From NCBI GenBank assembly GCA_963785725.1, contig CAWAWS010000039.1, positions 1 to 64,000 on the forward strand: a DNA stretch of 64,000 nt, written 5' to 3'. This document shows, piece by piece, positions 33,156 through 63,739 of this stretch. Both the position numbers and the translations under genes were made by a program. This DNA comes from an uncultured delta proteobacterium. GTDB taxonomy: Bacteria; Myxococcota_A; Polyangia; Palsa-1104. The first letter of the stretch is position 1, and each line of letters begins with the position of its first letter. A model generated the notes under the pieces. That model did not search any database and was not told the origin of the DNA. It worked only from the letters and a program-made list of their open reading frames with translations.

Positions 33156-33175
33156 CCCGGCCTAGGTAGGGCACC
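33156..33175 (+). repeat. cassette-boundary element (right arm)
   Basis: CCCGGCCTAGGTAGGGCACC, 10 nt after a stop codon. Confidence 0.55.
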
Positions 33176-33278
33176 GATGGCCCTGGTGATTCCCCCCTCG
33201 TACTGTGATGTCATGGACTGCGCAATACCCGGACCCGATGACTGAGCACATCGAGAGAGCTCAGGAAGGACGAAGCTC

Positions 33279-34139
33279 ATGAGTGAGATGATGCCGGCTG
33301 CATTCCTCGGGCACGGGAGCCCGATGAACGCGTTGGATCACAACGGCTACACCGAAGCGTGGCGTGCATTTGGGGAATCGGTACCACGACCTCGTGCGAT
33401 CCTGGCTGTCTCCGCACATTGGTACGTCAACGCGTCGGCCGTTACGGCCATGAAACAACCTAAGACCATCCACGACTTCTATGGGTTCCCCGATGAGCTC
33501 TTCGCGGTGCAGTATCCCGCCGCTGGCGACCCCGGCCTTGCGGAGGAGGTGGCCGAGGTGGTCAACCCCACCTGGATCGGCTTGGACCACGACAGCTGGG
33601 GCATTGACCACGGCGCCTGGTCGGTCCTCGTGCACGCGTTCCCTCAAGCCGACATTCCCGTCGTCCAGCTATCGATCAATGCAGAAAGGCCACTCGAGTA
33701 CCACTTCGAACTCGGGGCGAAGCTCGCACCGCTGCGTCGACGCGGCATCCTCATCGTCGCCAGCGGCAACGTAGTCCACAATCTGCGTCGCATCGACTGG
33801 AACCAGCCCGACGGCGGGTTCGATTGGGCTCATCGCTTCGATGACGACGCTCGTGAACACATGACCACATCACCGGCAGGGATTCTTGGCCTGCGCGATC
33901 ACCCTGATTTCCCGAACGCGGTTCCCACGCCCGACCATTTCCTCCCGCTCCTGTATCTCGCGGGACTGGCCGCGGCGACGGGATCCATCACCGACGTGCT
34001 CGTTGACGGCTACGCCTATGGATCGCTGTCGATGACGGCCTTCACGCTCGATGCCAATTGCCCGCAGCAAGGGCGTTCTGGCCCTGCCGCCCCGCTGCCA
34101 AGTCCTCATTTGGTCCCGACGGACGACACCAACACGTAG
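33279..34139 (+). CDS. ygiD: 4,5-DOPA dioxygenase extradiol (LigB family)
   Basis: [42 protein letters not shown]. Confidence 0.93.
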
Positions 34140-34310
34140 GGAGCACCTCCGAACACAAGACACTTGTGCCCAGGTCAGCCTCGAGCTGGCGGGCCATGCA
34201 TCATCGAACTGAGGCAGGGTGACCGTCGTAGCCCGCTGCCTCCCTTCGTGGGACCGCTCACGCCACGGCCAAAAGACGACACCCAGGACGGCGTTGTCCG
34301 TGACCATCGG

Positions 34311-34367
34311 CGGATGCCACGTTCCGGGCGAGCCAGTTACGCCCCAGGCCCGGCGTTTAGGGGACAC
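34311..34367 (+). repeat. cassette-boundary hairpin
   Basis: GGATGCCACGTTCCGGG...CCCGGCGTTTAGGGGACAC; contains the ASCH stop codon. Confidence 0.65.
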
Positions 34368-34803
34368 AGACAGTTGGCCCATCGTGCACTCGCTCAACGA
34401 CGCGAAATCGTTCAAGGACGACGGGGGTGTTGTCCTCGATCGTGAACGTGGGATCACCGAGCGCCTGCCGCATTTCGTCGCCGTGCCAACCCCTCTCGTG
34501 TGCGACCCGCCATTCGGCAACGGAGGTGAATCCCTCCGCTTCGTCAACGGCGTGACCTACGCCGACATCGCTGAGCGGGACCACGGCGACACTTGTGATC
34601 TCAATGACCGCGACCGGCCGGTTGTCTGAGTCAACCACCACCGATCGCCGGCCGGGTACTGGGAGTGGAGTGCCGTCCAGATCATATTCCCGCAGAAGAC
34701 TCGTCGTCGCGACCTTTTGACCACCGAGCACAGCGGACACCAGCGCATCTCGCAGAGGCCCCGGGAATGCAAACTCAGTAAGGGGCAGGTTCTCGTGAGT
34801 CAC
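34357..34803 (-). CDS. ASCH-domain protein
   Basis: EFAFPGPLRDAL, GQKVATTSL, HAVDEAEGF. Confidence 0.88.
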   Translation of the reverse strand: MTHENLPLTEFAFPGPLRDALVSAVLGGQKVATTSLLREYDLDGTPLPVPGRRSVVVDSDNRPVAVIEITSVAVVPLSDVGVGHAVDEAEGFTSVAEWRVAHERGWHGDEMRQALGDPTFTIEDNTPVVLERFRVVERVHDGPTVCVP

Positions 34804-34804
34804 G

Positions 34805-34932
34805 CAGCCCACGGTACCGCGGGCTGCGCTCCGAACTGGTGTACTGGGGCATTTAGCCGCTCTGGTCACGGCGGGAAGGGACACATCAGGCAGCACCAAT
34901 AGTGTCGCCCCAGCCCGGCATTCGGGGACACC
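34805..34932 (+). repeat. three tandem cassette-boundary elements
   Basis: CAGCCCACGGTACC...GGTGTACTGGGGCA (34805-34851), CGGCGGGAAGGGACAC (34869-34884), GTGTCGCCCC...CCCGGCATTCGGGGACACC (34902-34932). Confidence 0.65.
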
Positions 34933-35002
34933 TTCGGGACCTCAACGCGTCGGTTCGTTCGATGAAAACGGCCGGTTGGAGGGAGCGGTGCAAGATGACC
35001 GA

Positions 35003-35998
35003 CTACGGCACGACCTTTGCTCCACCAATGGGCACGATATCGACGCGATAGATAGCTTCCGACTCATGCCTTAGGCCCGAAACAGTGATGTCGCGAACGA
35101 GTGAGGTGACCTGATCTCCGCGTAGGTTGTCGTCGATCTCAAGGTGGGCGATCACCCAAAGTCGGTTTGGACCGACGAACGTGACGAGCAGCTCGCGAAT
35201 GGCGGTCACTCCAGGGTACCCAAGGAGAAACGTCCGGAACGCCTCCTCGTCAGTCGGTTGGAATGGCTGGGTAACCGGTGGCAACACCCAGCGCCTGGGG
35301 GGCTGCGGAGCCGGGGAGGTGAGCAACCAGGCGCCGACCAGGAAATCGTGACTGCGTTGGATGAGCCGACCCCCGGTATGGATGAGCATCACTCCGATGA
35401 GCACGGCAACGATCCCCTGGGGGATCGACGATCCGGTGATCTGATTGAGGCCCAAGGCGGCGAACGCCATCAAATCTCCCAGGACTGACACCGAATCTTG
35501 CATAAACACGGTCCTCAGACTGGGGTCGGACGTCGCCTGGGACTCGCTGAGGAGACTCACGTTCCGGCGGCGCGCTCGGTTGCTCATCTGACCGGCGGAC
35601 TGGCGAAATGAAGTCAGATCAAAGACAGTGGCGATCGCAAGCACGACATAGGCCACGACGAATCGAGAGGTCACGCTTGGGTGGATCAGCTCTTCGATAC
35701 CCTCGCGCAAGGAGAACAGCGCACCGGCAACCAGCACACCGAGTGCCACAAGCAGCGTCCAAAAGTAGATCTCCCGCCCGTAGCCCAACGGATGTCGGTC
35801 GTCGCGATCTCGGGTGCTGCGGTACTGAGCGATGACGAGGAAGACACCGGTGGCGACATCGGTGAGTGAGTGCGCGGCCTCGGCTGCCATTGCGGCTGAA
35901 CCCGTCAAGACCGCGGCGCCGGCCTTGGCGAGTCCGATCCCGAAGTCCGCCGCTAGAGCTACCCAAATGGTCCGTGTGGTGCTTTCGTTTGACATCAT
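35003..35998 (-). CDS. cation diffusion facilitator transporter
   Basis: SAAMAAEAAHSLTD, HPLGYGREIYFW, DPSLRTVFMQD. Confidence 0.88.
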   Translation of the reverse strand: MMSNESTTRTIWVALAADFGIGLAKAGAAVLTGSAAMAAEAAHSLTDVATGVFLVIAQYRSTRDRDDRHPLGYGREIYFWTLLVALGVLVAGALFSLREGIEELIHPSVTSRFVVAYVVLAIATVFDLTSFRQSAGQMSNRARRRNVSLLSESQATSDPSLRTVFMQDSVSVLGDLMAFAALGLNQITGSSIPQGIVAVLIGVMLIHTGGRLIQRSHDFLVGAWLLTSPAPQPPRRWVLPPVTQPFQPTDEEAFRTFLLGYPGVTAIRELLVTFVGPNRLWVIAHLEIDDNLRGDQVTSLVRDITVSGLRHESEAIYRVDIVPIGGAKVVP

Positions 35999-36072
35999 CC
36001 GGCCCTTCTTGGGATCGCCTTGATCTTCGGGGGTCACAGGGTCATCGTAGAAAGGCGCCGAGGGCGGATACC

Positions 36073-36124
36073 GGTATCCCCCTTGTGCCGCAGGGTGTCA
36101 CCCGAGCCCGGCGTTCAGGGCTAC
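36073..36124 (+). repeat. cassette-boundary hairpin
   Basis: GGTATCCCCCTTGTGCCGCAGGGTGTCACCCGAGCCCGGCGTTCAGGGCTAC. Confidence 0.75.
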
Positions 36125-36132
36125 TAAATCAA

Positions 36133-36570
36133 TCAACTTGCGACATCTGCCGCTGACACGATCCGATCTGGGTGGAGTCGGACGAGAAGCTCTCCCTCGA
36201 CACCGTTACGAGCGCCGAATTCGTCGGCCCGACTCTTTCCCATGTAGCGGCCGCCGATGATTGTGGCCCACCTGCCAACCTCTTCTAGGTCTTCGGAAAG
36301 AACTACAGACCCTTCGATCGTTACGAACGAATACGGAGCTCGATCATCTTGGACGCAAAGAGCGGCAAGGTGCGTTCGGGCGAGGTTTCGACCCTTCACG
36401 GTATCTCTGCCTGTATTGAAGACGATGTCCCCGTTGTCGTCGGTCACAAACCAAACTGGAGCGACGTGTGGCCGGCCATCGGCGCGGGTGGTGGCGAGCG
36501 TCCCTGGGCGAGCTGGGTGAGACGCAAGAAAGCTATTCACTTCGTGGTTAGTCATCAGATGGTAGGCCAT
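36133..36570 (-). CDS. PPOX-class F420-dependent oxidoreductase
   Basis: LATTRADGRPHVAPVWF, TVKGRNL, YMG...FGARN. Confidence 0.9.
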   Translation of the reverse strand: MAYHLMTNHEVNSFLASHPARPGTLATTRADGRPHVAPVWFVTDDNGDIVFNTGRDTVKGRNLARTHLAALCVQDDRAPYSFVTIEGSVVLSEDLEEVGRWATIIGGRYMGKSRADEFGARNGVEGELLVRLHPDRIVSAADVAS

Positions 36571-36660
36571 CAAGCCGTTCTAGCGCGGGGACGTTCGGAC
36601 GTGTCGCTTCCGCAAACTAGGGCCACTCGGGCACCCAATGACTGGCCGACAAGTGTGGAA

Positions 36661-36696
36661 GTGTCCCACCCTCCCTGCTGCAATGTACTGGGCTAG
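36661..36696 (+). repeat. degenerate cassette-boundary hairpin
   Basis: GTGTCCCA...GTACTGGGCTAG. Confidence 0.5.
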
Positions 36697-36789
36697 TCAA
36701 CGACCCCACCGATAAATCGCCTCAGCGCGCTCAGGTAGCCGCCAGTGCCCGAGAGGCGGACGAGCTAGTCGCCGCTGGCCGCTTCCTGG

Positions 36790-37056
36790 TTAGTCTTTGA
36801 GTATGACGTTGTGAACTTCCGTGAGCTCGTCAACCTTGACACCCGGGACGTTCGGCTTCACATTGTTGCCGAACCAGTTCTGGAAGTCGTCACGGGTCTC
36901 CCATATCTCAGATACGTGAAACTCGCCGTCTCTCAGGAAGGCTACGTGGGCGACGAAACCCGCCGCGGCCAGAAGAGGGGGCGTCAGATGCTCTGAGACC
37001 TTGTCGTACGAATCCGTCGTCATTCCTGAGACAGACAGCCTCGCCAATACCGACAT
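36790..37056 (-). CDS. small dimeric alpha+beta barrel (ABM-like) protein
   Basis: GFVAHV...EIWET...EVHNV; paralogs at 60053 and 61909. Confidence 0.7.
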   Translation of the reverse strand: MSVLARLSVSGMTTDSYDKVSEHLTPPLLAAAGFVAHVAFLRDGEFHVSEIWETRDDFQNWFGNNVKPNVPGVKVDELTEVHNVILKD

Positions 37057-37188
37057 GTTCGCTCCTCAGGCTCGTGGCTCATGTACTGCGAAATGGACCC
37101 TACTCATATGAACCACCTCATGCACCAGGTGTTTCAGGTGCATCCACTTGTGGGCAAATCTGGGTGAACTTCGGTCGAGATTATTAGC

Positions 37189-37234
37189 TGCCCCAGTTGT
37201 GCCTGCCGTCCCACCTTCCCCGCGATGTGGGGCA
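37189..37234 (+). repeat. cassette-boundary hairpin
   Basis: TGCCCCAGTTGTGCC...CCCCGCGATGTGGGGCA; perfect 7-bp outer arms. Confidence 0.75.
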
Positions 37235-37387
37235 AGCGGGAACATTTCGCTGTGGAGGTTGCTGACGGCCGAAGTGCGACCGCCAGAGCTCAAATTCCTC
37301 CAAGTCAGGCGTATCGATTCCCCCAGCGAGTCGGCGGAGGTATCACCCAATTCCCGTTCTGACTCAAAAAAGCATGGAGCCACGACC

Positions 37388-38464
37388 ATGGCCAATTTGA
37401 GCTTGTCCAATCGACCTGCACGCATTGTTCGGGTAACGGTGTTGATTGTAGGGATCCTGACAATAGGGGCGCTGCTTGGCATTGGAGGAGTGAAGGCTGC
37501 CCACGAGCTCCACGGCCCGCCACCTCCGCCGGTCGCTCAGTACTCGGCAGGCTACGGCCTCGATGGACCGGTAGCAGCGTCGATGGTGGGTTCTGACCTC
37601 TTTGTTGCGAATGAGTCGGGAAACTCCGTGACCGAAGTCAACGCCTCGTCCGGCGCTCACGTCGCAACGATTGCCGGCCGTTCCTTTGGATTGGACCAGC
37701 CAAGGGCGATTATTTCCGACGGACCCGCCCTGTTCGTTGCCAACGGTGCCAGCAATACAGTCACCGAGATTGATCCCACCAACCGCTCTCTCATCCGAAC
37801 TATCTCAGGGTTTTCTGATCCCCTTGCCCTCGCGGCCGAGAGCGCACGCATATATGTCCTGAACGGCACCGGGTCAGTTACAGAGGTGTCCGCAAGAACG
37901 GGCAGTCTTCTTGGAGTTGCCTCGGGTAACCAGTTTGGATTCAGCACGCCCGGGGGGATTGTTGCGGCTGGTGACCATCTGTTCGTGACAAACGAAGCCG
38001 CAAACTCCGTCACCGAGATCAACGATCGATCAATGAAGTTGGTGACCATATTGCAGGGGCCTAGTTACAAGTTCCGCAAGCCGACGGGAGCAGCCGTCGT
38101 AGGCGGTGACTTGTGGGTGACGAACCAAACGGGTGACTCGGTCACGGAGATCGCGACCAACACAGACGAGGTGACGCGAGTGGTAATCGACCACACGAAT
38201 CTCCCGACTCCAGGACCGATCGCCGTTGGCGACGGATACGTGTTTACCGTCAGCCCACCCGGAAACTCTCCCATGGTGAGCCAAATAACATCCACCGATG
38301 GAGCCGTTGCCTGGATGATGTGCAATACCAACGGTGCGTATCTGTTCAATGACCCTCAGGCCGCGGTTGTGGCGGGCTCGAGCCTTTGGGTAGTGAGCAA
38401 GGGAGGCAACTCCCTCACGCAGATGAACACCGATTCTGGAGCGCTCATTCGCACCATCTCGTAG
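37388..38464 (+). CDS. membrane-anchored beta-propeller (YncE/NHL-like)
   Basis: N-terminal TM segment, repeats LFVANxxxNSVTEI. Confidence 0.8.
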   Translation: MANLSLSNRPARIVRVTVLIVGILTIGALLGIGGVKAAHELHGPPPPPVAQYSAGYGLDGPVAASMVGSDLFVANESGNSVTEVNASSGAHVATIAGRSFGLDQPRAIISDGPALFVANGASNTVTEIDPTNRSLIRTISGFSDPLALAAESARIYVLNGTGSVTEVSARTGSLLGVASGNQFGFSTPGGIVAAGDHLFVTNEAANSVTEINDRSMKLVTILQGPSYKFRKPTGAAVVGGDLWVTNQTGDSVTEIATNTDEVTRVVIDHTNLPTPGPIAVGDGYVFTVSPPGNSPMVSQITSTDGAVAWMMCNTNGAYLFNDPQAAVVAGSSLWVVSKGGNSLTQMNTDSGALIRTIS

Positions 38465-38528
38465 CTGGCTGCGCACCACCGCACCTGCCATTGCCTGTAA
38501 CCGAGCGGGACTTCTTTTGCTCCTAGGA

Positions 38529-38585
38529 CTATCCCCACGGTGCCTGCATGGTGCGCCCATCCCGGCAGCGAACTGGGCTACCCCC
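38529..38585 (+). repeat. cassette-boundary hairpin
   Basis: CTATCCCCACGGTGCC...CCCGGCAGCGAACTGGGCTACCCCC. Confidence 0.75.
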
Positions 38586-38644
38586 GACCCTGAGGGCAGG
38601 CCGCCAGCTCGATCCCGCCGCTCTGACCACGCGAGGATGGTCCC

Positions 38645-39184
38645 GTGACGCCGGTGGTTCTGATTCGTCACGCCGAGCCGCTCATGACCGGAGAGACGCC
38701 GGGAGCCGAGTGGCCTCTGACCGAAGAGGGCAGGAAAGAGGCAGCCGCGCTGGGAAGGAGTCTCACCCGCCGATCTGCGAGCACAATCGTCTTGACGAGT
38801 CCTGAGCGCAGAGCCCGCGAAACTGCTGCGCTGTCCCTCCCTTCAGTGGTCGCGGAGATCAGGGATCAGCTCAGGGAGGTGATGAAACCGTGGTATGCCT
38901 CAGCCGCCGAGCACACGAACGCCGTAGCAAGAAACCTGAAGGGCGAAACGGTTGAGGGATGGGAACGTCGTGAAGACGTGATCAGCCGGATTGCGCTACT
39001 GAAGCCCGACTTTGGATCCTCAAAGCACCTTGTTTTGGTGAGCCACGGCTTGCTCCTCACGACTTGGCTTGACCACGAGATAGGACTGAGCGATCCCTTG
39101 TCGTTTTGGTCCGAGCTAAGGATTCCCGACGCTTGGGCGGTCGATTTCGAGGACAAGTCGCTTGAGCGGATCGCTGACCGTTAA
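38645..39184 (+). CDS. histidine phosphatase family protein
   Basis: LIRHAE, TSPERRARETA, VSHG. Confidence 0.85.
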   Translation: MTPVVLIRHAEPLMTGETPGAEWPLTEEGRKEAAALGRSLTRRSASTIVLTSPERRARETAALSLPSVVAEIRDQLREVMKPWYASAAEHTNAVARNLKGETVEGWERREDVISRIALLKPDFGSSKHLVLVSHGLLLTTWLDHEIGLSDPLSFWSELRIPDAWAVDFEDKSLERIADR

Positions 39185-39273
39185 GTAGCGACCGCTTTGG
39201 AATTAGGAGCAATCTGGGTGAGGTCTTGGGCCTGCACCAACTAGCTTCTCCCACACGGATCTGAGAGGAGCGA

Positions 39274-39948
39274 GTGGTGAAGGTCGTTGTGGGGGAGATA
39301 CTCCCCCTTGCATTGGTGGTGACGATCTCGCCGATCAACGTCATTCCCGTCATCCTCCTTCTCTTCACCAAGCGACCCTTGGTCAATGCGTCGTCCTTCT
39401 TCGTCGGGTTCGTTGCCGGCGTCGCAGCCATGCTCGTGGCGCTGGTCGCTATCGCAGAGGCAGTGGATCTCTCTCCGGGGTCTGGGCATTCGACGTGGGT
39501 GGCCGTGCTGAAAATGGGCCTCGGTGCGTATCTGTTGGTGGCCGCCGTCCGAAAGTTCCGCGGGCGATCCCGAGCTGGTGGCGAGGGTGCAATGCCCAAG
39601 TGGATGGATGGGATTGCTGCGTTTGAGCCCGGACGGTCCTTGGGAACGGGTCTGGCCCTGGGTTCCGTCAATCCGAAGAACGTGGTCGTCGGTTTGGCTG
39701 CTGCAGCGACCATCGCATCTGAGGCAGGCTCACGCGGTCAGCAGATTGGTGCGATCGCCATCTACGTGTTGGTCGCTGTCTTGGGGGTGGCGGCCCCGAT
39801 CGTGGTAACGGCTTTCCTCGGAGATCGATCACCGAAAGTCCTGGAGGGGTGGAAGGTCTGGCTGACGCAGAACAATGCGACTGTCATGTCGGTGCTGTTC
39901 CTGATCTTTGGTGTGGTCCTGATTGGCCAGGGTATCGAAGCCGCGTAG
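39274..39948 (+). CDS. GAP/Sap family (DUF2910) membrane protein
   Basis: ISPINVIPVILLL, MPKWM, NPKN, WLTQNNATVM. Confidence 0.85.
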   Translation: MVKVVVGEILPLALVVTISPINVIPVILLLFTKRPLVNASSFFVGFVAGVAAMLVALVAIAEAVDLSPGSGHSTWVAVLKMGLGAYLLVAAVRKFRGRSRAGGEGAMPKWMDGIAAFEPGRSLGTGLALGSVNPKNVVVGLAAAATIASEAGSRGQQIGAIAIYVLVAVLGVAAPIVVTAFLGDRSPKVLEGWKVWLTQNNATVMSVLFLIFGVVLIGQGIEAA

Positions 39949-40164
39949 CCCGGTCCCGTAAGGGCCTAACGGCGACATCCCCTCCGGGCAGCAAGGATCG
40001 TCAGGGAAGGCCAGCGCTTGCAACGGGTCAATCGATCAACAGGTGCACGGTATTCGTTCGTCGCACTGTGCCAAGGCGGTGGAAGGGTCGTTCGGCCCAA
40101 TGAATGTTGCTTGCATTGTCGTCATCCTGGGTGACAGAGTTCGGTTACGGCGAGGAAGAGGCGG

Positions 40165-53013: not shown

Positions 53014-53037
53014 GAGCCTGCGTGGCTACGTGCCGGA

Positions 53038-54378: not shown

Positions 54379-54518
54379 TGTTCACAGTCTCTCTTGCTCC
54401 AGCTCCGAGTGCTCGAACGCGGGCCGAGTCGCAAGATTGGACCGGTGGAGACTGCGCCGACCTGCGGTTGGCCTCATGTCTTTCTCAACTGACGGGGGGC
54501 TGATCCGACCGAGGAGAT

Positions 54519-54580
54519 TGTCCCGGGCCATCGGTCACCAGCCAACTTGCCTCCCACCATCCCGCCGAACGGGGACACCC
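54519..54580 (+). repeat. cassette-boundary hairpin
   Basis: TGTCCCGG...CATCCCGCCGAACGGGGACACCC. Confidence 0.7.
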
Positions 54581-54600
54581 TAAGAAGTAGGTTGCTGGCC

Positions 54601-55302: not shown

Positions 55303-55356
55303 CCCGACTGCGCCAGTAGGGCTCGATACTGCCCGCCTCCCGGCGTGCTGGGCTAG
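55298..55356 (+). repeat. cassette-boundary hairpin
   Basis: GGTGACCCGACTGCGCC...CCCGGCGTGCTGGGCTAG; fills the space between two convergent stop codons. Confidence 0.75.
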
Positions 55357-55359
55357 TTG

Positions 55360-56472
55360 CTAGAGGTACTGGCCGATGGACGCCGTGGATGAAACCACAC
55401 CCTCGTGTCCCGCCCCCTGGCGCAGCGACAACAGCTCGGCCAACGTGGCCTCGACCTCTCGAGGAAGAGCCCGGTCGCCGAGCCACTTGCGGGCTTCGCT
55501 CGCAGTCAGCTTGCCGACCTCAACCTGCGCGATACAGCGACCTGGCCGGACGATGGCAGGGTGAAGCCGGGCAATGGGTTCGTTCGTCGTGAGAGCGATC
55601 AGAATTGACCTCCCCTGGCCCAGCAGACCGTCGGTCAAGTTGAGCAAACGAGCCAGACCCTGGCCGGATCGCTCCTTGGCGCCGGCCGTGATGAGCTCGT
55701 CACAGTCTTCAAGAATCAAGAGCCGTGACTTTGTTGCCTTCGGCTTCTCTTCCCGATCGTCCTCGGATTGGTCATCTTCTTCGCCCAGGGCGACATTGAG
55801 CAGGTACGCAGGGTCAGCAAACAGATGCTCTGGATCGACCACGTAGTCGAATCGGCACCAGCCTCGCCACGCGTCGGCCAACGCACGCAGCGCCGTGGTT
55901 TTACCAGTGCCCGGAGGGCCGTGGAGCAGCAGGAGCTTTCCGGACAGCAGGCCACGATTGCGTCCCATGAGGTCATCTAGAGCCCGCGCCGCGTTCTTCG
56001 TGTAGTTAGGTCGGATATCCTGCCAGGTCCGTACTTCGACCCGTCGCTCGTGGCGAACTGGGCCGTGACGCCCTTGGTGCCAAAACCCCACCGCAACCTT
56101 GGTGTGATCGATCGTTTTGGGTTCTTCGGCTCCCGCCTTCGAGGCATCGAGGATGTCTTTGGCCAACTGTTCGGATACCGCGAGCACGGTGATCCTGGCG
56201 TTTCCGTGAGCCCATCGAACGACGCTCGTAATCCAACCTGGGCCAGCCGCCAACACTGATCGGGTCCCGTCGAACATTGCGACCCGATCAGGCTCAATCC
56301 CCGGTGGCAACAGGCTGGCCCCGTCGCGGGCGCGAGACAACGTCACACTCCGTGCGTAGCGGTAGTGGCCTGAGATGTAGTGCTCGACAAAGAGCAGGTC
56401 GTTCGCATCGACAACCGAATCGGCGTCGTCGAAGGACATAACTCTTTGCGAGGTGCGTGGAATCTTGTTCAT
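55360..56472 (-). CDS. AAA ATPase with DUF5925-like N-terminus
   Basis: HGPPGTGKT, LLILEDCDEL, LLNLTDGLLGQG, RPGRC. Confidence 0.88.
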   Translation of the reverse strand: MNKIPRTSQRVMSFDDADSVVDANDLLFVEHYISGHYRYARSVTLSRARDGASLLPPGIEPDRVAMFDGTRSVLAAGPGWITSVVRWAHGNARITVLAVSEQLAKDILDASKAGAEEPKTIDHTKVAVGFWHQGRHGPVRHERRVEVRTWQDIRPNYTKNAARALDDLMGRNRGLLSGKLLLLHGPPGTGKTTALRALADAWRGWCRFDYVVDPEHLFADPAYLLNVALGEEDDQSEDDREEKPKATKSRLLILEDCDELITAGAKERSGQGLARLLNLTDGLLGQGRSILIALTTNEPIARLHPAIVRPGRCIAQVEVGKLTASEARKWLGDRALPREVEATLAELLSLRQGAGHEGVVSSTASIGQYL

Positions 56473-56677
56473 TGTGCTTGCCTCTGGACGCGATGGCGCG
56501 TCCGATCGTCGACCAAAGGCACTCGGGCCAATGGTTCTGTTCCTACGGTTCGGGGTCAGGCGTATGCGATCGACGCCGACGGCTCGCTCAACCGAAGAAC
56601 GGGCGCGACAGCATCAGTCGTAGGCACCGGACGAAGTCCGAATGAATTGGTGCGATTGACTGAGCCATAGTCGGCTC

Positions 56678-56706
56678 ACTCTGACGAAACCCAACTTGAA
56701 AGTCAA
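56678..56706 (-). promoter_or_regulatory. sigma70-type promoter upstream of a putative leader peptide
   Basis: TTGACT-N17-CAGAGT, with an ATG 10 nt downstream. Confidence 0.5.
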
Positions 56707-56750
56707 GGGGAGTTTGAGGATTTGCAGGAACCACGCACGACGGGCGGGCT

Positions 56751-56797
56751 TGCCCATAAGTGCCGAACTGCCAAACTGTCCTGGCGCAGTGGGCACC
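56751..56797 (+). repeat. cassette-boundary hairpin
   Basis: TGCCCATAAGTGCC...CCTGGCGCAGTGGGCACC. Confidence 0.75.
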
Positions 56798-56934
56798 TTG
56801 ACCTGTTCACCGGGTCGACTACGGGCAGTACCTCTTGCGCCTACTCGACATAGCCCTTCTGGGTGCCTTTCGAGATCAACGCGGACGGTCTTCGTATAGC
56901 TGCCGTCAACAGTCAGGTTGAGGCGATACCTCTT

Positions 56935-57432
56935 TCACTCATTCTCTGTGAACGTGTTTCTCACCCTTTTCGAGGTGAGGAAGTAGCAGAGGCCAACGAG
57001 ATAAGGAAGGACGTCGATCACCGTACCGACAGGGGACTTCGCTCCCATCAGGTGCCAGGAAACAACGATCGATGCCGACAAGATGTTGAAGACAATGTTG
57101 TTCGCAATCGCAGAGTGGCGTCTCTTAAACATCAAAGTGAACAAGACGACCGTGTACACAGCACCGGCGGTGTTTGTGAGCACGTAGTACAGCAGTCCAG
57201 CCAGCGGAATGAAGGTGTGCAGACCCACGATCGCCGGGTCTGAGTAGATGACGATCGCTCCCACCGTCAATCCGAGCCCGTGCACGACTAGGAATGCCAA
57301 GGCAATGACATAGAGCAGTAACCACCCGGCAATCCCTCGAGGTTCCCCGTGAAGCGAGTCGCGGGAGTGGAGGAGTGCCGGATCGCCCGTGCCGCCGTAG
57401 CGGGGTGAGCCCACATCGCCGCCGTCGGCCAT
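56935..57432 (-). CDS. DUF2569-like membrane protein
   Basis: GIAGWLLL and C-terminal YFLTSKRVRNTF. Confidence 0.8.
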   Translation of the reverse strand: MADGGDVGSPRYGGTGDPALLHSRDSLHGEPRGIAGWLLLYVIALAFLVVHGLGLTVGAIVIYSDPAIVGLHTFIPLAGLLYYVLTNTAGAVYTVVLFTLMFKRRHSAIANNIVFNILSASIVVSWHLMGAKSPVGTVIDVLPYLVGLCYFLTSKRVRNTFTENE

Positions 57433-57654
57433 GGTCACGATGTGAGCGAGAAGGGCGGCTGTTCTAACTCTTCTGCCATGCAGAGAATGGTGGCCAAGCC
57501 TGAGCACGATCACAATCGGGGATTACCCTTAAATGTCCCTGAGACCGAATTCGCTCGTCTGTGTCGCGCGGGAATTCTGATGATTTTGGAGCACGGTCGT
57601 CCGTGTCTGCACATCCTCGGAGAACCATCCTCGGCCTCCATCCTGGCCTCTGGA

Positions 57655-57708
57655 GGTACCCCGTGGCGCAAAGGGGTCACGCCCACTCCCGGCGATCAGG
57701 GATACCCC
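57655..57708 (+). repeat. cassette-boundary hairpin
   Basis: GGTACCCCGTGGCGC...CCCGGCGATCAGGGATACCCC. Confidence 0.75.
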
Positions 57709-57760
57709 GAGAGCGCCCTATCGGCACATCCCGGTCGCTCTGACCTGCCACCATGAATCC

Positions 57761-58285
57761 GTGACCGACAGCCGGTTCACCATCCGTCCGGCTCGCCCCG
57801 AGGACGCCCCACGTCTCCAACACATCGAGTTGGCCACCCAAGGCCAGTTCGCCGCCATCGGTTATGACCAGGTTGCTGCCAGCCCCCCGGACTCCATCGA
57901 GTTGCTGGTCGAGTATGCGCGGTCAGAACACTCCTGGGTAGCCGTGGTTGACAACGAGGTAGTGGGCTACATACTCGTAGGTGTCCTTGACAACGCCGCC
58001 CACATCTTTCACGTTTGCGTCCATCCCGGCCACCAGGGAATCGGGGTCGGGAAAGCACTTATTGAGAAGGTCAAGAGCTGGGCGCGTTCGGCAGGACGCC
58101 CGGCAATAACCCTGGCGACCTTCTATGAGGTGCCATGGAACGGTCCGCTCTACGAGCACCTCGGCTTCCGAGTGCTGGATGAGTCGGAACTGGGACCCGA
58201 GATGCTGGCCAGAGGGGAGCACGACGTGGCCGGAGGATTATCGCCTACGGGGCAGGTGACCATGCGGCTCGACCTCGACATCTGA
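57761..58285 (+). CDS. GNAT acetyltransferase
   Basis: VHPGHQGIGVGKAL, TFYEVPWNGPLYEHLGF. Confidence 0.92.
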   Translation: MTDSRFTIRPARPEDAPRLQHIELATQGQFAAIGYDQVAASPPDSIELLVEYARSEHSWVAVVDNEVVGYILVGVLDNAAHIFHVCVHPGHQGIGVGKALIEKVKSWARSAGRPAITLATFYEVPWNGPLYEHLGFRVLDESELGPEMLARGEHDVAGGLSPTGQVTMRLDLDI

Positions 58286-58378
58286 CCCAGGTTGGTCGGG
58301 CTGCGAGTCTGTACGAACAATCGGCATAGCCGACCGTCCGCAACTGCCGGTTACCGAGCGGGTCGACCCTTCCCCGCC

Positions 58379-58432
58379 CAGCCCGGAAGTGCCGCAGGGT
58401 GGCACGCTCCCGGCAGCGTACTGGGGGGCACC
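58379..58432 (+). repeat. cassette-boundary hairpin
   Basis: CAGCCCGGAAGTGCCGCAGGGTGGCACGCTCCCGGCAGCGTACTGGGGGGCACC; shares GTGCCGCAGGGTG with the 36073 copy. Confidence 0.75.
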
Positions 58433-58454
58433 TGGACCAAGTCGGATTCAAGCA

Positions 58455-58800
58455 TCAGCTTCGAGGAGCGACGACGATGAGGGCGGACCCGAAATCGGAC
58501 AGCGTCCATGAGATCGGGGCCACGTACGACTTGCCGCTCGTGATTCCGTTAGGGAGCGCGAAGCGGACGACGTAGCCATCTCGCACTACCACTCGAGCTT
58601 GCGTGTCACGGGCTATAGAACCGGCCGGAGGATTGCCGCTTACTCCTTCACGGCTCACAGGCGCATAGACGATGACCTCGGGCAGCAGTGGAATGGACGG
58701 AATGGTGCAGATATACGTGCCACCGTGGACAGCTTCAATCTTGGCGTTCGTCAGAAGCCCAATCGGTGGGAGTCCAGCCACCCATGCGTAGCGGGCATCA
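58455..58800 (-). CDS. hypothetical protein or gene fragment
   Basis: Open frame between two boundary-like sites; no recognisable motif. Confidence 0.3.
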
Positions 58801-58869
58801 AAGGGGTTACCCAGGAACAGGTTGTAGTTGTGGTTCACTCTATCGGTGGCACTTAGTCTGGGCACTGCC

Positions 58870-59865
58870 GTGACCACCGTCGTTGATCAGGATCTGGGCG
58901 ACCTCGAGCCCTATCGCCGCCCGCTGACCGCCTATTGCTACCGGATGCTTGGGTCCCCCCAAGACGCCGAGGATGCGGTGCAGGACACCTTCGTGCGGGC
59001 ATGGCGGGGCCTGGGGGGATTGGAGGACCGAACCGGGTTGCGCCCATGGCTGTATCGGATCGCTACGAACGTCTGCCTGGACATGGTGAAGGGTCGGGGA
59101 CGGCGCGCTCTGCCAATGGACCTCGCGCCGGCTAGCAGCGGGCGGCGATGGGAGTCTTCCCATGAGCTCGCTCTCGGCACCCCTCGCCCAGAGGCGACCT
59201 GGGTGCAGCCGATCCCCGACCACCTGGTCTCATCCCCGAACGCAGACCCGGCTGACGTCGCCGGGTTCCGAGAGTCGATCCGACTGGCGTTCATCGCCGC
59301 CCTCCAACACCTCATGCCCCGCCAGCGCGCCGTTCTGATCCTCCGTGACGTCCTGAGCTGGCGGGCTCACGAGGTGGCGACGCTGCTCGAGACCAGTGAG
59401 GACGCTGTCAACAGCACCCTGCGCCGTGCCCGGAGTGCCCTGGAGGCGGTCGACCCCGATGCCGTGCCGAGGGCGGCGACGGAGGCCGACCGTGAGCTCC
59501 TGTACCGCTACATCGAGGCATTCGAGCGCTACGACGTCGACTCGCTCGTGGCGCTGTTGCACGAAGACGCCAGTCTCAGCATGCCGCCCTACGAGCTGTG
59601 GCTCCGGGGCATCCCCGACATCCGTCGCTTCCTGGCCGCCCTGAAGGTCGAAGGCGGCCGCGACCAGGTAATCGAGGTCGCGGCCAATGGATGTCCGGCG
59701 CTGGCCGTATACCGATCTGCCGGCCCCTCCGGGGCGTTAGAACCATTCGAGATCCACGTGCTCGAGATCGCTGGCGGTCGCATTGTTGCGATTCACGCTT
59801 TTCTTGAACCGGCTCTATTTCCCGTCTTCGGACTCCCTCCGACGGCCGCACCGATCAGCGAATAG
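58870..59865 (+). CDS. ECF sigma factor with SnoaL-like domain (SigG/ECF56 type)
   Basis: YCYRMLGSPQDAEDAVQ, WLYRIATNVCLD, WVQPIPD, RESIRLAFIAALQHL, SMPP, ANGCPA. Confidence 0.92.
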   Translation: MTTVVDQDLGDLEPYRRPLTAYCYRMLGSPQDAEDAVQDTFVRAWRGLGGLEDRTGLRPWLYRIATNVCLDMVKGRGRRALPMDLAPASSGRRWESSHELALGTPRPEATWVQPIPDHLVSSPNADPADVAGFRESIRLAFIAALQHLMPRQRAVLILRDVLSWRAHEVATLLETSEDAVNSTLRRARSALEAVDPDAVPRAATEADRELLYRYIEAFERYDVDSLVALLHEDASLSMPPYELWLRGIPDIRRFLAALKVEGGRDQVIEVAANGCPALAVYRSAGPSGALEPFEIHVLEIAGGRIVAIHAFLEPALFPVFGLPPTAAPISE

Positions 59866-60052
59866 GTGATGCCCACGTAGTCGGACTCGCCGAGTTCACC
59901 GCCCAAGCCTCGATGACGGAGTTTGGGGGCCGCCGGGATGCTGTCAGAGACTTCTCGAGCCGCGACGACTTTTGTGCTCCGGCGCAGTTGTACTCAGTGG
60001 GGAGCCGCGAAGGACGCCCTTCCCCGAGAACAGACCCAAGGAGGCAACACCG

Positions 60053-60325
60053 ATGCCTGTACTCATGATTGCCGAACAACCAAACATGGACGAGGCGACC
60101 TATGCCTCGATGTTGGAGCCGCTGATGCCGTTGCTGCGTTCGACGACGGGCTTCATTTCTCATGCCGGAGGTCAGAGTCCCGCCGGCGGAATGCGCATCA
60201 TCGAGATCTGGGAGTCCGAGGCGGACCAGCAGAAGTTTTTTGACGAGAACCTGAAGGCAGATCTTCCACCTGGACTTGTACCTGACCTCACGTATTCGGA
60301 GCTACACGCCGGATTCACTCGGTAG
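60053..60325 (+). CDS. small ABM-like protein
   Basis: GFISHAG...EIWESE; RBS AAGGAGG. Confidence 0.75.
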   Translation: MPVLMIAEQPNMDEATYASMLEPLMPLLRSTTGFISHAGGQSPAGGMRIIEIWESEADQQKFFDENLKADLPPGLVPDLTYSELHAGFTR

Positions 60326-60685
60326 GCGTAGCCTCGTCGCTTCGAGCCTGTCGAGGGGCCGATCAGAGGTGGAAGGGACACGAGCGCGCATGGCGGCGAG
60401 CCCCTTCCACTTCGGACGGCTCCTGCCAACGGCCCCTCTGTCCAACCTCAGCGGGAATCAGAACCCGCACGGGACCCGTTCTGAGGCAATGTTTTGCCAA
60501 CTCGAACCTACCCCCAAGCCCACATCGTTGGAACTAGTCGATGCAAAAATTATTGGGTCGACGCCGAGGCGCTGTCAGTCGAACTCGTCGAAAGGTTCGT
60601 CCAGTTCGACCCGGGTCACGTCTTGGCGCATAACCGGCAGCGGAGGCAGTCGATCTTCAGACTTGCGGCTACAGGTTGGCGAACT

Positions 60686-61057
60686 TCAGCGGCGAGCGAG
60701 CCGACGGCCGCTTTCCGTGCTGATCGGCGTGTAGTTCATCTCAAAGTGGTGATAGAGCTTTGATTCGTCGGCTTGCGAGAGTTCCTCGCCATGCATCTCG
60801 ATGTGGGGCGCAGACTTAACCTGCTCCTTCGTTACCGCGACCTGCAGGTCATCGGGACCGATCTGGATGTTGCCCAAAGGAACGAAGGCCAGGTGTCGGT
60901 CGAGAAAGCCCTCTTTGACAGTCGCAAACATCGGCTCGTCGGTCTCGACGTCAACGTAGACATCTTGCAGCTTTCCGATTTTCCCGCCGTTACGATCGAT
61001 CAGCATTTTGCCGTGCCATTCGGCCACATTCCATTGGGCTTCCTGATCGTCAGTCAT
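60686..61057 (-). CDS. PRC-barrel domain protein
   Basis: GKIGKLQDVYVD, FVPL, KEQVKSAP, LYHHF. Confidence 0.88.
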   Translation of the reverse strand: MTDDQEAQWNVAEWHGKMLIDRNGGKIGKLQDVYVDVETDEPMFATVKEGFLDRHLAFVPLGNIQIGPDDLQVAVTKEQVKSAPHIEMHGEELSQADESKLYHHFEMNYTPISTESGRRLARR

Positions 61058-61120
61058 AACAGCCTCCTCATCGTCTCTAAACACAGCCTACCGAGCGCAC
61101 TGTGTGCACATAGCAAAAAA

Positions 61121-61198
61121 AGCCCAGTGGAATCGGCTTGAAGTGCCGATCAGCCACCCTTGGCGACGCACCCCCTCCCGGCGTGCTGGGACACCCCC
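61121..61198 (+). repeat. cassette-boundary hairpin
   Basis: AGCCCAGT...AAGTGCCG...CCCGGCGTGCTGGGACACCCCC. Confidence 0.75.
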
Positions 61199-61347
61199 GA
61201 AGGCAGCCGTCGTCGTGGCATTGTTATGCGGTGCTGGACTATTCGGGCGGCAGTCCGAAACGCATCGACATTGGTTTCATTCCGGCACCATCGGGTCCTC
61301 AGATGCACTTCTGGTAGGACGAGGAGGAGCACAGCTGCTTCATCATC

Positions 61348-61782
61348 ATGACCGAGTATGCCCCGGACATGGAGTCCCCAGATCGGGTTGAAACCGAGGC
61401 CCTGATCAGTGGAGTGGGCTGCGTTCAGAGCGTCTTCGGCTATCCGAACGAAGAGGCCTTCTGGAAGGACCCGAGAGGTGACTTCCGCCATGGTTGCTTT
61501 GAAATCGACGGATCAAAGTGGCATGAGAACATCGACGCCTACAACCTCAGATCGTTTGGGAACCACTATTGGCGTGACAACAGTCCTGCGCTGCATCACT
61601 ACTTCGTCGGATCCAAGGATGCCTCGTGTCAGTTCCTGGCAAGGAGTCTGGAGGTCGAACTCTTCCCAGGAAGGTCTCGCGGAGACATCATTCGGACCGT
61701 CTACGGACGACAGCGTGAGCAGTTCACAGAAACCCTGAGACGCATCAGAGAGATGCAACAGCACTCGCAGCCGAGCGAGTGA
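61348..61782 (+). CDS. hypothetical protein (start may be further upstream)
   Basis: FGYPNEEA...CFEIDGSKW...LHHYFVGSKD...FLA; plausible coding pattern. Confidence 0.6.
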   Translation: MTEYAPDMESPDRVETEALISGVGCVQSVFGYPNEEAFWKDPRGDFRHGCFEIDGSKWHENIDAYNLRSFGNHYWRDNSPALHHYFVGSKDASCQFLARSLEVELFPGRSRGDIIRTVYGRQREQFTETLRRIREMQQHSQPSE

Positions 61783-61788
61783 CCTCGT

Positions 61789-61807
61789 CCCGGTGAACTG
61801 GGGCACC
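61789..61807 (+). repeat. cassette-boundary element (right arm)
   Basis: CCCGGTGAACTGGGGCACC, 6 nt after a stop codon. Confidence 0.7.
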
Positions 61808-61908
61808 TCGGAGGTCGGTGAACAGCTCGACATTCAGAGCCAACCTAGGGGTATGGTCCCGCTTGGCAGTGGGGATTGGCCGAGCACAACGTACGGAGGT
61901 GGTGCCCA

Positions 61909-62184
61909 ATGGCACTTGGAATCTATTTCGCACACGAAGGCTTCACACCGGAGAAGTACGGCAGTGCAATCGAGCAGCTGGAGGCCGCCGGTGCGGGCAA
62001 GCCGAAGGGGCGTACTTACCACTGCGCGCTCGAATCGGACGGTGCAATCCAGGTCTTCGACATCTGGGAGTCCCAGGCGGACTTCGATGCTTTCGGGCCG
62101 ACGCTGATGCCGATCCTCACCGAGTTGGGAGTCGGACTAAAGGAGCCGATGGTCGCCACTGTTCACAACGTGATAACCGGCTGA
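61909..62184 (+). CDS. small ABM-like protein
   Basis: GRTYH...DIWESQADFDAF...VHNV; RBS GGAGG. Confidence 0.75.
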   Translation: MALGIYFAHEGFTPEKYGSAIEQLEAAGAGKPKGRTYHCALESDGAIQVFDIWESQADFDAFGPTLMPILTELGVGLKEPMVATVHNVITG

Positions 62185-62218
62185 GTCTTCGCAACTGAGT
62201 AGTCAGTCGGCGGATTGG

Positions 62219-62266
62219 TTCATTGGTCGCCACCCCCGAGCCGGCGGCGGTGAATGGGGGCACCCC
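62219..62266 (+). repeat. cassette-boundary hairpin
   Basis: CATTGGTCGCC...CCGGCGGCGGTGAATGGGGGCACCCC, abutting the next stop codon. Confidence 0.65.
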
Positions 62267-62664
62267 TACTTCGTCAGTTCCCGCACCTCCGGCACGGTCG
62301 TGACTACGAGGTCCACCAGCTCCCAGAGAGAGGGCAGGTCGGGTTGGTCCAACGCCTGCGCTCTCGTTAGACGCTGGCCGTAGTAATCCGCCTCGCCCTT
62401 TCCTGCCACCAGAGCATCCACAAGTCCCGCTCCCTCGCTGTTGATACGGCAGGAAAAAGTGACGTGGTCGGCAAACGGTTCCTCCCATGAACCAAAGGTG
62501 GCATCCAGCCAGACTTCGTCCTTCGGGTGGCCATGACACACGGCACTTACGACCGAATAGGCGTCCCCACTCTGAGTGGCGAAGACGACCACCCGCTTGT
62601 AGTTGCGACCGCATTCCGCACACGCCTCGTCCTGGACCTGGCGATCACTGAGGTCGATGGACAT
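62266..62664 (-). CDS. hypothetical protein (CxxC)
   Basis: ~132-aa ORF, CAECG, GSWEE, DHVTFSCR. Confidence 0.55.
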   Translation of the reverse strand: MSIDLSDRQVQDEACAECGRNYKRVVVFATQSGDAYSVVSAVCHGHPKDEVWLDATFGSWEEPFADHVTFSCRINSEGAGLVDALVAGKGEADYYGQRLTRAQALDQPDLPSLWELVDLVVTTVPEVRELTK

Positions 62665-62711
62665 CACAGCAACTGTATTTCGGAATGTCTGTCGACCCTT
62701 GTGGCCGATGG

Positions 62712-62888
62712 CTAATCCTCTGGCTCCACCAGCGCCAAGGCATCACTCACCGCCCGTGTCGCTCTGTCCCACGAACGCCGCGCTCCCGCTACGTCTTCGT
62801 TCTCGCCGGGCAGTCGGCCCTCTAACTCGATGAGGGCGCCCTGGGCGTCGATCAGGAGGTCAGCAAGGCGCTGCTGCTGCTGAGTCAT
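62712..62888 (-). CDS. small helical hypothetical protein, 58 aa (below ORF-track cutoff)
   Basis: MTQQQRLADLLIDAQGALIELEGRLPGENEDVAGARRSWDRATRAVSDALALVEPED. Confidence 0.45.
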   Translation of the reverse strand: MTQQQQRLADLLIDAQGALIELEGRLPGENEDVAGARRSWDRATRAVSDALALVEPED

Positions 62889-63003
62889 GGACCGATGGTA
62901 CGCCTTCGTACGTCTCGTTGATGTCGGTGCTTCACCGTCTCAGTCGAGCCGACAGGTCCCACACCCGGCGAACGAGGATGCACTGTGTGCGATGCTCTGA
63001 CTC

Positions 63004-63681
63004 GTGCGACGTGCTGTCCCGTACCTGCTGCTGGGATTGTTGACGCTCCTAGTCGCAGCGGCGGTCGGAATCGGCTTGCGGGACCAGCCGAACGCGACCA
63101 ACGGCGCCGCTACGAATGGTGTCGGAGACGCAGCGGCATCGCCAATCACAAATCCAACTCCGCTCACCATTCCGACCACAACGACCGTGCCCCCGGGCGC
63201 TGTCGTGTCATCGACGAATATTGCACCCTGTCGGAGCGCAGCCGTCCAGATCACCACTCCTGTGCATTTCGGAGCGGCAGGAACGCAAGTCTTATATCTA
63301 CAGCTCGTAAACGTGGGCAGTATTCCCTGTTCGCTTGAGGGATATCCCAAGGTGTTTGGCTTGAACTCGGCTGGTCTGCCGGTCGCGCAGGCTGTTGAGC
63401 ACGACTTGGGTATTGCGTGGGACTCTAAGTACCCTCAACCACCCATTGTCGTACTTGCTCCGGGCGAGGCGGCACATGCGACGGTGTTCGGGAACGACTA
63501 CGACTTCTACGGCGGCGTGGACGGTGCTGCGAACTGTCCGTCTTACCTAGCCTTATCGGTCACGCTTCCCGGCGATGACGTGGCAAAAGTCATCTCGATG
63601 ACCAACTACGGCGGCAGCCCGGGGTTTCCCAGCTGCGGAGGTGAATTCAGCGTCAACTTCGTCAGGCCATTCACGCAGTGA
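63004..63681 (+). CDS. secreted DUF4232-domain protein
   Basis: TM + Thr-rich linker, GAAG...LVNVGSIPCSLEGYP, VVLAPGEAA. Confidence 0.85.
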   Translation: MRRAVPYLLLGLLTLLVAAAVGIGLRDQPNATNGAATNGVGDAAASPITNPTPLTIPTTTTVPPGAVVSSTNIAPCRSAAVQITTPVHFGAAGTQVLYLQLVNVGSIPCSLEGYPKVFGLNSAGLPVAQAVEHDLGIAWDSKYPQPPIVVLAPGEAAHATVFGNDYDFYGGVDGAANCPSYLALSVTLPGDDVAKVISMTNYGGSPGFPSCGGEFSVNFVRPFTQ

Positions 63682-63704
63682 GGAGGACGGCCAACCGCCG
63701 CTCC

Positions 63705-63739
63705 GGTAACCGCCCCGTCCCCGCGACTGGGATACCCCC
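63705..63739 (+). repeat. cassette-boundary hairpin
   Basis: GGTAACC...CCCCGCGACTGGGATACCCCC. Confidence 0.65.

Follow-up and report, generated by a model that had tools for sequence, protein, structure and literature searches.

The DNA analyzed here, referred to as the window, is the whole stretch of 64,000 nucleotides at positions 1 to 64,000 of contig CAWAWS010000039.1 (C39), which belongs to bin G000; G-numbers below denote genomes and L-numbers loci. From about 33 kb onwards, the window holds an array of genes set apart by short related repeats that all face the same way, and the GC content of the array (0.58–0.69 per kilobase) is low in comparison with that of the core (approximately 0.70–0.77). 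A reading made from the sequence alone, without database searches, had proposed that these repeats are the recombination sites of an integron-like cassette system, and the names that it gave to the genes agree with Pfam. It described most intervals as holding one gene; several, such as those at 38.6–44.1 kb and 58.4–61.2 kb, hold more than one. The gene at 47598–48569 is a core gene with array on either side: it encodes an NlpC/P60-SLT protein, nine relatives share the core order pgi, MarR, NlpC/P60-SLT, acyl-CoA ligase, and in the window insertions flank the NlpC gene on both sides.

The repeats are real. We scanned the contig with a weight matrix built from 467 sites of other genomes, with zero window sites in the training set and a threshold of 12, and found 22 matches on the forward strand and none on the reverse strand at 33–65.2 kb. 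The flanks contained no matches, either at 13.7–32.4 kb, where the motif had been reported absent, or at 65.2–104 kb, and shuffled sequence gave a mean of 0.25 per shuffle (20 shuffles). In 203 kb of core DNA from relatives, we found eight matches at threshold 12 and one at threshold 15, while the array still had 19 at the higher threshold. No match to the repeats was found in Rfam. A first profile, built from the window's own sites, had given 16 matches in the 8.9-Mb bin, 14 of them inside the window, but that test was circular and used the wrong background. The independent matrix recovered 19 of the 22 elements listed earlier, the one at 34805–34932 being two sites. The entries at 33156, 47563, and 52975 scored below 10, although the last nonetheless fits the strict pattern, and a contig enters just past its core at 53005. 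The element listed at 49641/49764 is real in its left part and core, whereas 49681–49766 is the end of an IS110 element inserted at the core. Two matches lie beyond the earlier list, one at 48668, which is plausible, and one at 47028, which consists of the core only and lies within an open reading frame. As the sequence-only reading had stated, these are not attC sites: the RYYYAAC...GTTRRRY pattern is present in none of 21 window sites.

The repeats mark the points at which otherwise similar sequences part. When 534 sites from 11 sources were compared, 88 pairs had a neighboring body in common, which was the upstream one alone in 45 pairs, the downstream one alone in 43, and both in none. Where the resemblance is 90% or more, the identity profile switches at the CCGGCG core: in the 31 upstream-sharing pairs it drops from 97% at position −1 to 48% at position 0; for the 27 downstream-sharing pairs of the same similarity, it is at the random level left of −6 and reaches 67–93% at 0..3. 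Between-genome pairs make up 28 of these 58. The upstream-sharing pairs mostly keep the loop and change the tail (18 pairs; 9 change both and 4 keep both), and the downstream-sharing pairs mostly change the loop and keep the tail (17 pairs; 7 change both and 3 keep both). The pattern suggests that the core is where most exchanges took place, with the GTGCCG box upstream of it accounting for some and a point slightly beyond it perhaps for a few.

Individual cassettes of the window recur elsewhere. The DUF899 cassette at 48665–49684 is 88% identical to a site-bounded cassette in G064, the cassette at 61790–62246 is 93% identical to one in G064 with other neighbors, and the MBL-fold cassette at 54566–55361 is 83% identical to a site-bounded cassette in G209. 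The gene at 44155–44479 forms a site-bounded cassette in both G062 and G064, and G062 carries a counterpart of the VOC cassette at 49804–50301 (79%) at the same locus. In sequencing runs of peat and soil, contigs with 90–99% identity part from the window at 58414 (in three runs), 55346, 36069, and 34836, the contigs of two runs diverging at 36069 with one of them carrying a different upstream box; contigs of other samples enter it at 55340 and 53005 and bridge the sites at 54567, 56786, and 57694. As the contig comparison covered runs with shares of at least 0.2 and their longest pieces only, these are examples and not a rate. On this sequence evidence, the repeats are very likely cassette junctions.

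To describe the site, we aligned 433 distinct sites and found their mirror axis in the middle of CCGGCG (6.1 bits, the next axis having 3.5). The best partner of the 11-bp right arm is the stretch at −17..−7, and the columns mirror each other at −8/+1, −9/+2, −10/+3, −11/+4, and −13/+6. CCGGCG is exact in 380 of the sites, partly by selection. Other spacer lengths (4, 8, or 14 bp) about this axis give equally good scores, so the 6-bp length of the spacer rests on conservation. While 293 of the 433 sites have kept both arms and lack an upstream left arm and box, the other 140 have additions 21 or 23 bp upstream, namely a third arm (9.1 bits), the GTGCCG box, and a stretch resembling an arm (6.3 bits), and it is these additions that give rise to the hairpin of the sequence-only reading. 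The site is best read as a putative 28-bp arm-6-arm site of dif/lox type, not as a bulged hairpin. Some right arms start with three or six extra RYG bases (window 38567, 58415, 62246, and 36679, and relatives), which look like duplications of the last three bases of the core.

Similar arrays are found in relatives. A pattern scan of 5 of the 64 parts of a species collection gave at least 120 loci, and a covariance model trained on the window, then applied to 80 long loci, revealed clusters of co-oriented sites in L013, L016, L031, and L067. Scans of five whole genomes gave 17–117 matches each, the highest number being in G064. By the strict pattern, 25 of 151 Acidimicrobiaceae genomes were positive, with 6 control matches in total, and about 7 of the 25 look like chance. 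The largest array, at G209:C4 2068903–2177434, spans 108 kb and has 96 sites, arranged as two divergent arms; its center holds no recombinase, and there are no sites past its ends. Another array, in G061, has 21 sites. The fetched regions were centered on clusters, and the following counts thus describe arrays and not whole genomes. Only 5 of 491 sites lie inside called genes. The 357 intervals have a median length of 934 bp, and 184 contain one called gene, 105 none (the caller misses short genes), and 68 two or more. Neighboring sites form 421 same-strand pairs against 24 switches, 18 of the latter being divergent and 6 convergent. The direction of the genes is random (91 with and 93 against the site direction), in agreement with the claim that the window's sites face one way whatever the direction of the gene. 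As a source of this randomness, we considered inversion of the gene between the tail and the upstream box and rejected it, finding no such pair. No conserved gene is present at all 18 divergence points, apart from a 303-aa tyrosine recombinase at 3 of them.

The gene of this 303-aa tyrosine recombinase was found within arrays of G064 and G063. It was present in 16 of 20 genomic loci fetched, and 12 of these 16 carry sites, mostly pointing away from it. For an independent test, we selected 80 metagenomic loci by the recombinase protein alone: 49 had sites, and a reversed-sequence control gave 1 match. The sites point outward in 60 of 62 cases upstream and in 45 of 52 downstream (105 of 114 in all). 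The nearest site is outward in 31 of 32 cases upstream (P = 1.5e-8) and 29 of 33 downstream (P = 1.1e-5), P values that are overstated as some loci are near-copies. The recombinase gene was found in 13 of 25 pattern-positive genomes vs. 21 of 126 pattern-negative ones (odds ratio 5.4), a comparison in which kin are not independent, three matches are distant homologues, and the positives G113 and G213 are unpublished, this being the only result that draws on those two.

The sites beside the recombinase resemble docking sites. Upstream of the gene, a core-like match followed by GGG is present in 31 of the 66 loci with enough sequence, one mismatch allowed, and ten related loci have one docking sequence in common, 76–79 nt away from the start codon, after which the cassette start differs in all ten. 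A second docking site lies usually 40–75 nt past the start of a downstream 167-aa gene; in loci such as L317, L318, and L324, it comes after the stop codon of the recombinase. L317 has a homologue of the P450 gene of the window (76.6% over 1246 bp) as the first cassette next to its recombinase, and the recombinase-headed array of L295 carries the window's ABM cassette. We rejected the CCGGCG within the last codons of the recombinase as a docking site, the bases that follow it being fixed by Gly and the stop codon, unlike tails. Between the start codon of the recombinase and the docking site, there is a conserved leader of approximately 35 nt (L282–L361) that could be an operator.

In 28 recombinase sequences, the columns R158, K184/187, H246, R249, H272, and Y281 are invariant, and we take them to be the catalytic ones. 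The protein falls below all curated Xer and IntI cut-offs; TIGR02249 gives 50.6 bits, in two stretches, against a cut-off of 265. Residues 144–284 align to positions 23–168 of PF00589 and leave no room for an I2 insertion, and IntI4 matches only 226–283. Its nearest named relatives, at 51% identity (85 phage records), are integrases of Arthrobacter and Gordonia phages, and among solved structures the closest are XerD and XerA; the protein has two domains and no arm-binding domain, and its predicted model is poor (predicted local distance difference test score, pLDDT, 46.7). It is rare outside the family, with 3 matches in 401 genomes of the phylum at E 1e-80, the center included. The 303-aa Xer-like protein is, judging by its sequence and position, quite likely the enzyme acting on the sites. 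No tyrosine recombinase was found on C39, a result uninformative beyond about 104 kb. The suggestion of an integron-analogous system with a tyrosine recombinase encoded elsewhere agrees with the breakpoints at the sites and with the enzyme and outward sites in relatives. The other enzyme suggested, of the HUH type, finds no such support: Y1 transposases were absent from five incomplete genomes, four of them array-rich relatives, the control being found in 6 of 14. Y2 (IS91/ISCR) transposases were also absent from the five genomes, uninformatively, as the control itself gave no match. A universal resolvase was not found either, resolvases being missing from G064 and G065.

In 37 of 64 loci with enough sequence, a convergent 167-aa gene (for example L138:6029–6532) lies downstream of the recombinase. 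It is present in 41 of the 80 metagenomic loci and has 554 homologues. The protein is all-helical with a confident predicted model (87.4), has no Foldseek match at E 0.001 or better, no match in Pfam or to a named Atlas cluster, no significant PDB sequence match, and no likeness to the recombinase.

Tyrosine recombinases bind as two monomers to the arms of each double-stranded site and swap strands across a matching spacer. In the system proposed here, the enzyme would act on a double-stranded 28-bp site consisting of an 11-bp arm, the CCGGCG spacer, and another 11-bp arm, and the asymmetric, near-invariant spacer would provide both homology and direction. Two direct sites would release a cassette as a circle, and the circle would insert at a docking or array site in one facing, whatever the direction of its own gene. 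The platform seen in relatives consists of a docking site, the recombinase, often the convergent 167-aa gene, and a second docking site, with the sites on either side pointing outward; the two inverted docking sites would give rise to two outward arrays. The third arm and GTGCCG box found upstream in about a third of the sites could be an accessory or second exchange site. [quoted passage not shown] The double-stranded chemistry of the sites is probable from their anatomy. The conjunction of cassette junctions, the 303-aa recombinase, and double-stranded chemistry we consider rather better than an even bet. In its broadest form, the proposal is a gene-capture system of Acidimicrobiaceae that evolved independently, in which a phage-integrase-like Xer-type enzyme and a partner without known family or fold, encoded between two outward docking sites, build bidirectional arrays of up to approximately 100 cassettes around one directional double-stranded site, with no I2 insertion and no folded substrate, and seed many islands of the chromosome in trans; this we regard as only slightly favored.

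The strongest competing explanation keeps the same system and enzyme but has the full sites used as folded single strands like attC, with GTGCCG pairing with CCGGCG, the outer arms pairing, and one strand being exchanged. The upstream box is indeed complementary to the core and tail and has two fixed distances, −27 (58 of the 140 sites) and −29 (50 of them), the folding energy of full sites is better than that of shuffles by approximately 1.5 kcal/mol (P about 1e-7), so that a hairpin is conceivable, and the loop differs in 9 upstream-sharing pairs and is common to 3 downstream-sharing pairs. In a first loose test, the left box paired better with the start of its own cassette (6.2 vs. 5.8, P = 0.007), an effect that was rejected when stricter sets gave P values of 0.08 and 0.26. 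The latter set, of 98 unique sites, showed no excess complementarity at circular junctions. Folded singly on both strands, 8 sites were no stabler than shuffles (z −1.35 to +1.22), and no asymmetry was found between the top and bottom strands. The stems do not covary, either in the pair counts of a first 14-site alignment or in the inner stems, where 1 change in 176 was compensatory, and two-thirds of the sites have no box. The enzyme also lacks the I2 insertion that integrases use for such chemistry (PMC7790495). These results speak against the bulged hairpins of the sequence-only reading and make use as folded strands unlikely.

Alternatively, the host XerC/XerD may recombine the sites as they do with pdif modules, with the 303-aa protein being a passenger or helper. 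The 11-6-11 geometry is that of dif, as described in an excerpt of PMC10132070, and in G061, with its array of 21 sites, the only two matches above the family cut-off are XerC/XerD-like by score and length. Yet the TTAT/ATAA arms of dif are present in none of 500 sites, the host's own dif having not been located, the sites form long direct-repeat runs, with far more same-strand neighbors than switches, and the strict outward polarity and variable first cassettes at the 303-aa gene would go unexplained if it were a passenger. We consider this improbable. Less probable still is movement of the cassettes by the bridge-RNA recombinases of IS110. No gene family is more frequent in the arrays than IS110 (48 copies), and in one IS110 type, represented by the remnant in the window and at 15 places in relatives, 14 of 16 ends lie directly after CCGGCG, that remnant included; however, the bases at 0..3 beside the core are free to vary, which does not fit a fixed RNA guide, the cassettes lack IS110 ends, and the polarity centers on the tyrosine recombinase. 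IS110 elements reportedly also target attC. Their habit of targeting repeats such as repetitive extragenic palindromes (REP), noted in PMC11208160, would explain those at the core as parasitism, and a parasite is how they are best read. The same IS110 type was found once in a docking site beside the recombinase. Ordinary dispersed repeats (REP, miniature inverted-repeat transposable elements, or terminator-like sequences) shuffled by general homologous or illegitimate recombination would account for degenerate sites in many islands per genome, as with the matches in G064, and any recombination between repeats would favor identical blocks, but this least probable explanation is largely refuted by the lack of Y1/RAYT genes in five genomes and of Rfam matches, the independence of orientation from gene direction, breakpoints clustering at one block, near-identical single-gene units across genomes, and docking sites with variable first cassettes.

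Several observations weigh against recombination by the 303-aa enzyme at double-stranded sites. No site was found at 4 of the 16 genomic and 31 of the 80 metagenomic recombinase loci, many of the latter being short; 9 of 114 nearby sites point inward; and 21 of the 126 pattern-negative genomes carry the recombinase. A query for the recombinase did not find it in the array-rich G061, G062, and G065, in the relative G203, or in the bin, all of which are incomplete. The detector scores the core, making the core's invariance partly circular. The bases at 0..3 differ in 7 of the 27 downstream-sharing pairs and agree in 4 of the 31 upstream-sharing ones, so that the exchange point is mapped only to about −6..+3. 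Neither the pairs nor the loci are independent of one another, and assembly faults may lie behind some within-genome pairs. Finally, no circular junction was present among the contigs listed, contigs being the only material searched.

Table 1. Repeat sites and associated features of the window (for sites, the last base of the core is given where available; "matrix" denotes detection by the weight matrix)
Position	Strand	Core end	Feature	Evidence
33100..64000	+		cassette array, low GC, in two blocks around core gene; runs on to about C39:65100	
34339..34366	+	34355	site, 28-bp arm-CCGGCG-arm	score 19.3; contig joint at 34349
34825..34852	+	34841	site, degenerate core	matrix; contig pieces from two runs stop at 34836, one continuing unlike
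34904..34931	+	34920	site	score 28.6
36074..36124	+	36113	full site, upstream third arm and GTGCCG box	score 35.8
36663..36696	+		degenerate site opening ABM cassette (36673–37130)	matrix; cassette in recombinase-headed array L295, 84.6%
37186..37235	+	37224	full site	score 31.6
38528..38581	+	38567	full site, tail 3 nt longer	score 25.8
44073..44122	+	44111	full site, weak right arm	matrix
47598..48569	−		core NlpC/P60-SLT gene, not cassette	Pfam; syntenic between MarR and acyl-CoA ligase in 9 relatives
48652..48679	+	48668	weak site absent from earlier list; opens DUF899 cassette 48665–49684	matrix
49641..49680	+		left part of full site and core, right arm displaced by insertion	matrix
49681..49766	+		IS110-end remnant directly after CCGGCG, then joined to cassette start	contigs run into IS110 sequence past 49766
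50282..50309	+	50298	site closing VOC cassette	matrix; cassette common to same locus in G062 (79%)
52984..53014	+	53000	probable site, below matrix threshold	strict pattern; contig enters at 53005
54551..54578	+	54567	site opening MBL-fold cassette 54566–55361	matrix
55329..55356	+	55345	site	matrix; one contig leaves at 55346, another enters at 55340
56748..56797	+	56786	full site	score 24.3; contig bridges
57678..57705	+	57694	site	score 26.1; contigs of two runs bridge
58377..58432	+	58415	full site	matrix; contigs of three runs exit at 58414
61167..61194	+	61183	site	score 26.0
61779..61806	+	61795	site opening cassette 61790–62246	matrix
62230..62263	+	62246	site, longer tail	matrix
62954..62981	+	62970	site, weak right arm	score 16.9
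63709..63736	+	63725	site opening cytochrome P450 cassette	matrix
1164..1191	−		opposite-strand site of second low-GC region near contig start	score 32.1
1626..1653	−		weaker opposite-strand site	score 16.1

The contig itself requires care. The first 104 kb of C39, including the whole window, have Acidimicrobiaceae-like word use and 79–86% DNA identity to G203, the closest relative, and to G181, G065, and G075; the gltD–pgi stretch of the window shows 79–85% identity to the same four genomes vs. 67–75% to the genus of the bin itself. Word use changes over somewhere between 104 and 112 kb, the rest of C39 matches the bin, and second copies of gltB, gltD, and pgi are present in the bin. C39 thus looks chimeric, with a junction near 104–112 kb, although a genuine 100-kb transfer, core genes included, may be an alternative. 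If the contig is chimeric, absence of sites or recombinase elsewhere in the bin carries no weight. The same applies to the searches of the bin's GTDB relatives, scoring only 95 candidates per genome, that found no arrays in 40 (with array DNA) or 60 genomes (with the first covariance model), because those genomes are not related to this segment of the contig. At the window's locus, we found no sites in G209, G064, G189, G181, and G075, one each in G203 and G152, 3 in G062, and 13 in G065; a fixed docking site there was rejected, five relatives having no site at all.

Other features of the window are unrelated to the sites or lie outside the array. The core genes DAO, CorA, patatin, gltB, and pgi at 18038–31997 are broken across frames, likely by sequencing errors, and contigs of other runs show single-base indels relative to the window elsewhere. 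Surface-protein genes at 43238–43966, 15403–16190, and C39 70.7–71.4 kb contain repeated units of approximately 126 bp that are common to relatives and have no connection to the sites. An IS481-family transposase at 6296–7753, 85% identical to a copy in G065, lies within the second low-GC region holding the two opposite-strand sites.

If the proposal is true, plain double-stranded sites in direct repeat can serve to build and maintain long cassette arrays, and one may ask what prevents their collapse by excision; candidates for this role are the 167-aa partner and the third arm upstream. In its broadest reading, the system would be invisible to integron detectors. The site would serve as a marker that cuts hundreds of kilobases of accessory DNA of soil and peat actinobacteria into mobile units. 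For a simple assay, the system would offer one defined enzyme, its two docking sites, and the 28-bp site, and the enzyme is a possible directional recombinase for high-GC hosts.

We found no description of this system in the open-license literature of PubMed Central and bioRxiv, the scope of the search excluding subscription papers. The arrays resemble integrons (IntI, attI, attC, and CALINs) in their mostly single-gene cassettes, co-oriented arrays, arrays without an enzyme, and IS110-family parasites at the sites and, in relatives though not in the window, in a docking site that lies upstream of a tyrosine recombinase gene, diverges from it, and is followed by a variable first cassette. In integrons, the cassette genes are aligned with an upstream promoter, an alignment not seen here given the random gene direction. 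Further differences are the lack of the GTTRRRY core, the near-invariant 6-bp spacer with mirror arms, an enzyme without I2, two docking sites with two outward arrays, and an actinobacterial host. The consulted sections of the literature give GTTRRRY as the core of attC and attI and describe the promoter Pc (PMC8876359), tie cassette shuffling to I2-dependent single-strand chemistry (PMC7790495), and report complete integrons to be absent from Actinobacteria in a survey of complete RefSeq genomes (PMC9024848).

With the pdif/dif modules of Acinetobacter and their XerC/XerD, the system shares 11-6-11 sites that bound gene modules and insertion sequences that target the sites (PMC10132070, in the same excerpt), but it differs in its GC-rich arms, long direct-repeat chromosomal arrays, linked dedicated recombinase, and optional upstream third arm. 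The nearest matches of the enzyme and its two-domain architecture without an arm-binding domain are like those of the arm-less actinophage integrases of the IntBrujita type as partly described in PMC8138268, a likeness by matches and not by a tree; whereas those integrate one phage genome, the enzyme here lies between two docking sites that collect accessory genes of the host. REP/RAYT repeats are likewise short, GC-rich, intergenic imperfect palindromes hit by IS110, but no Y1 enzyme was found in the five genomes, and the present sites are clustered, co-oriented, and mark exchange points. The system likely works like an integron yet belongs to neither the integrons nor the dif modules.

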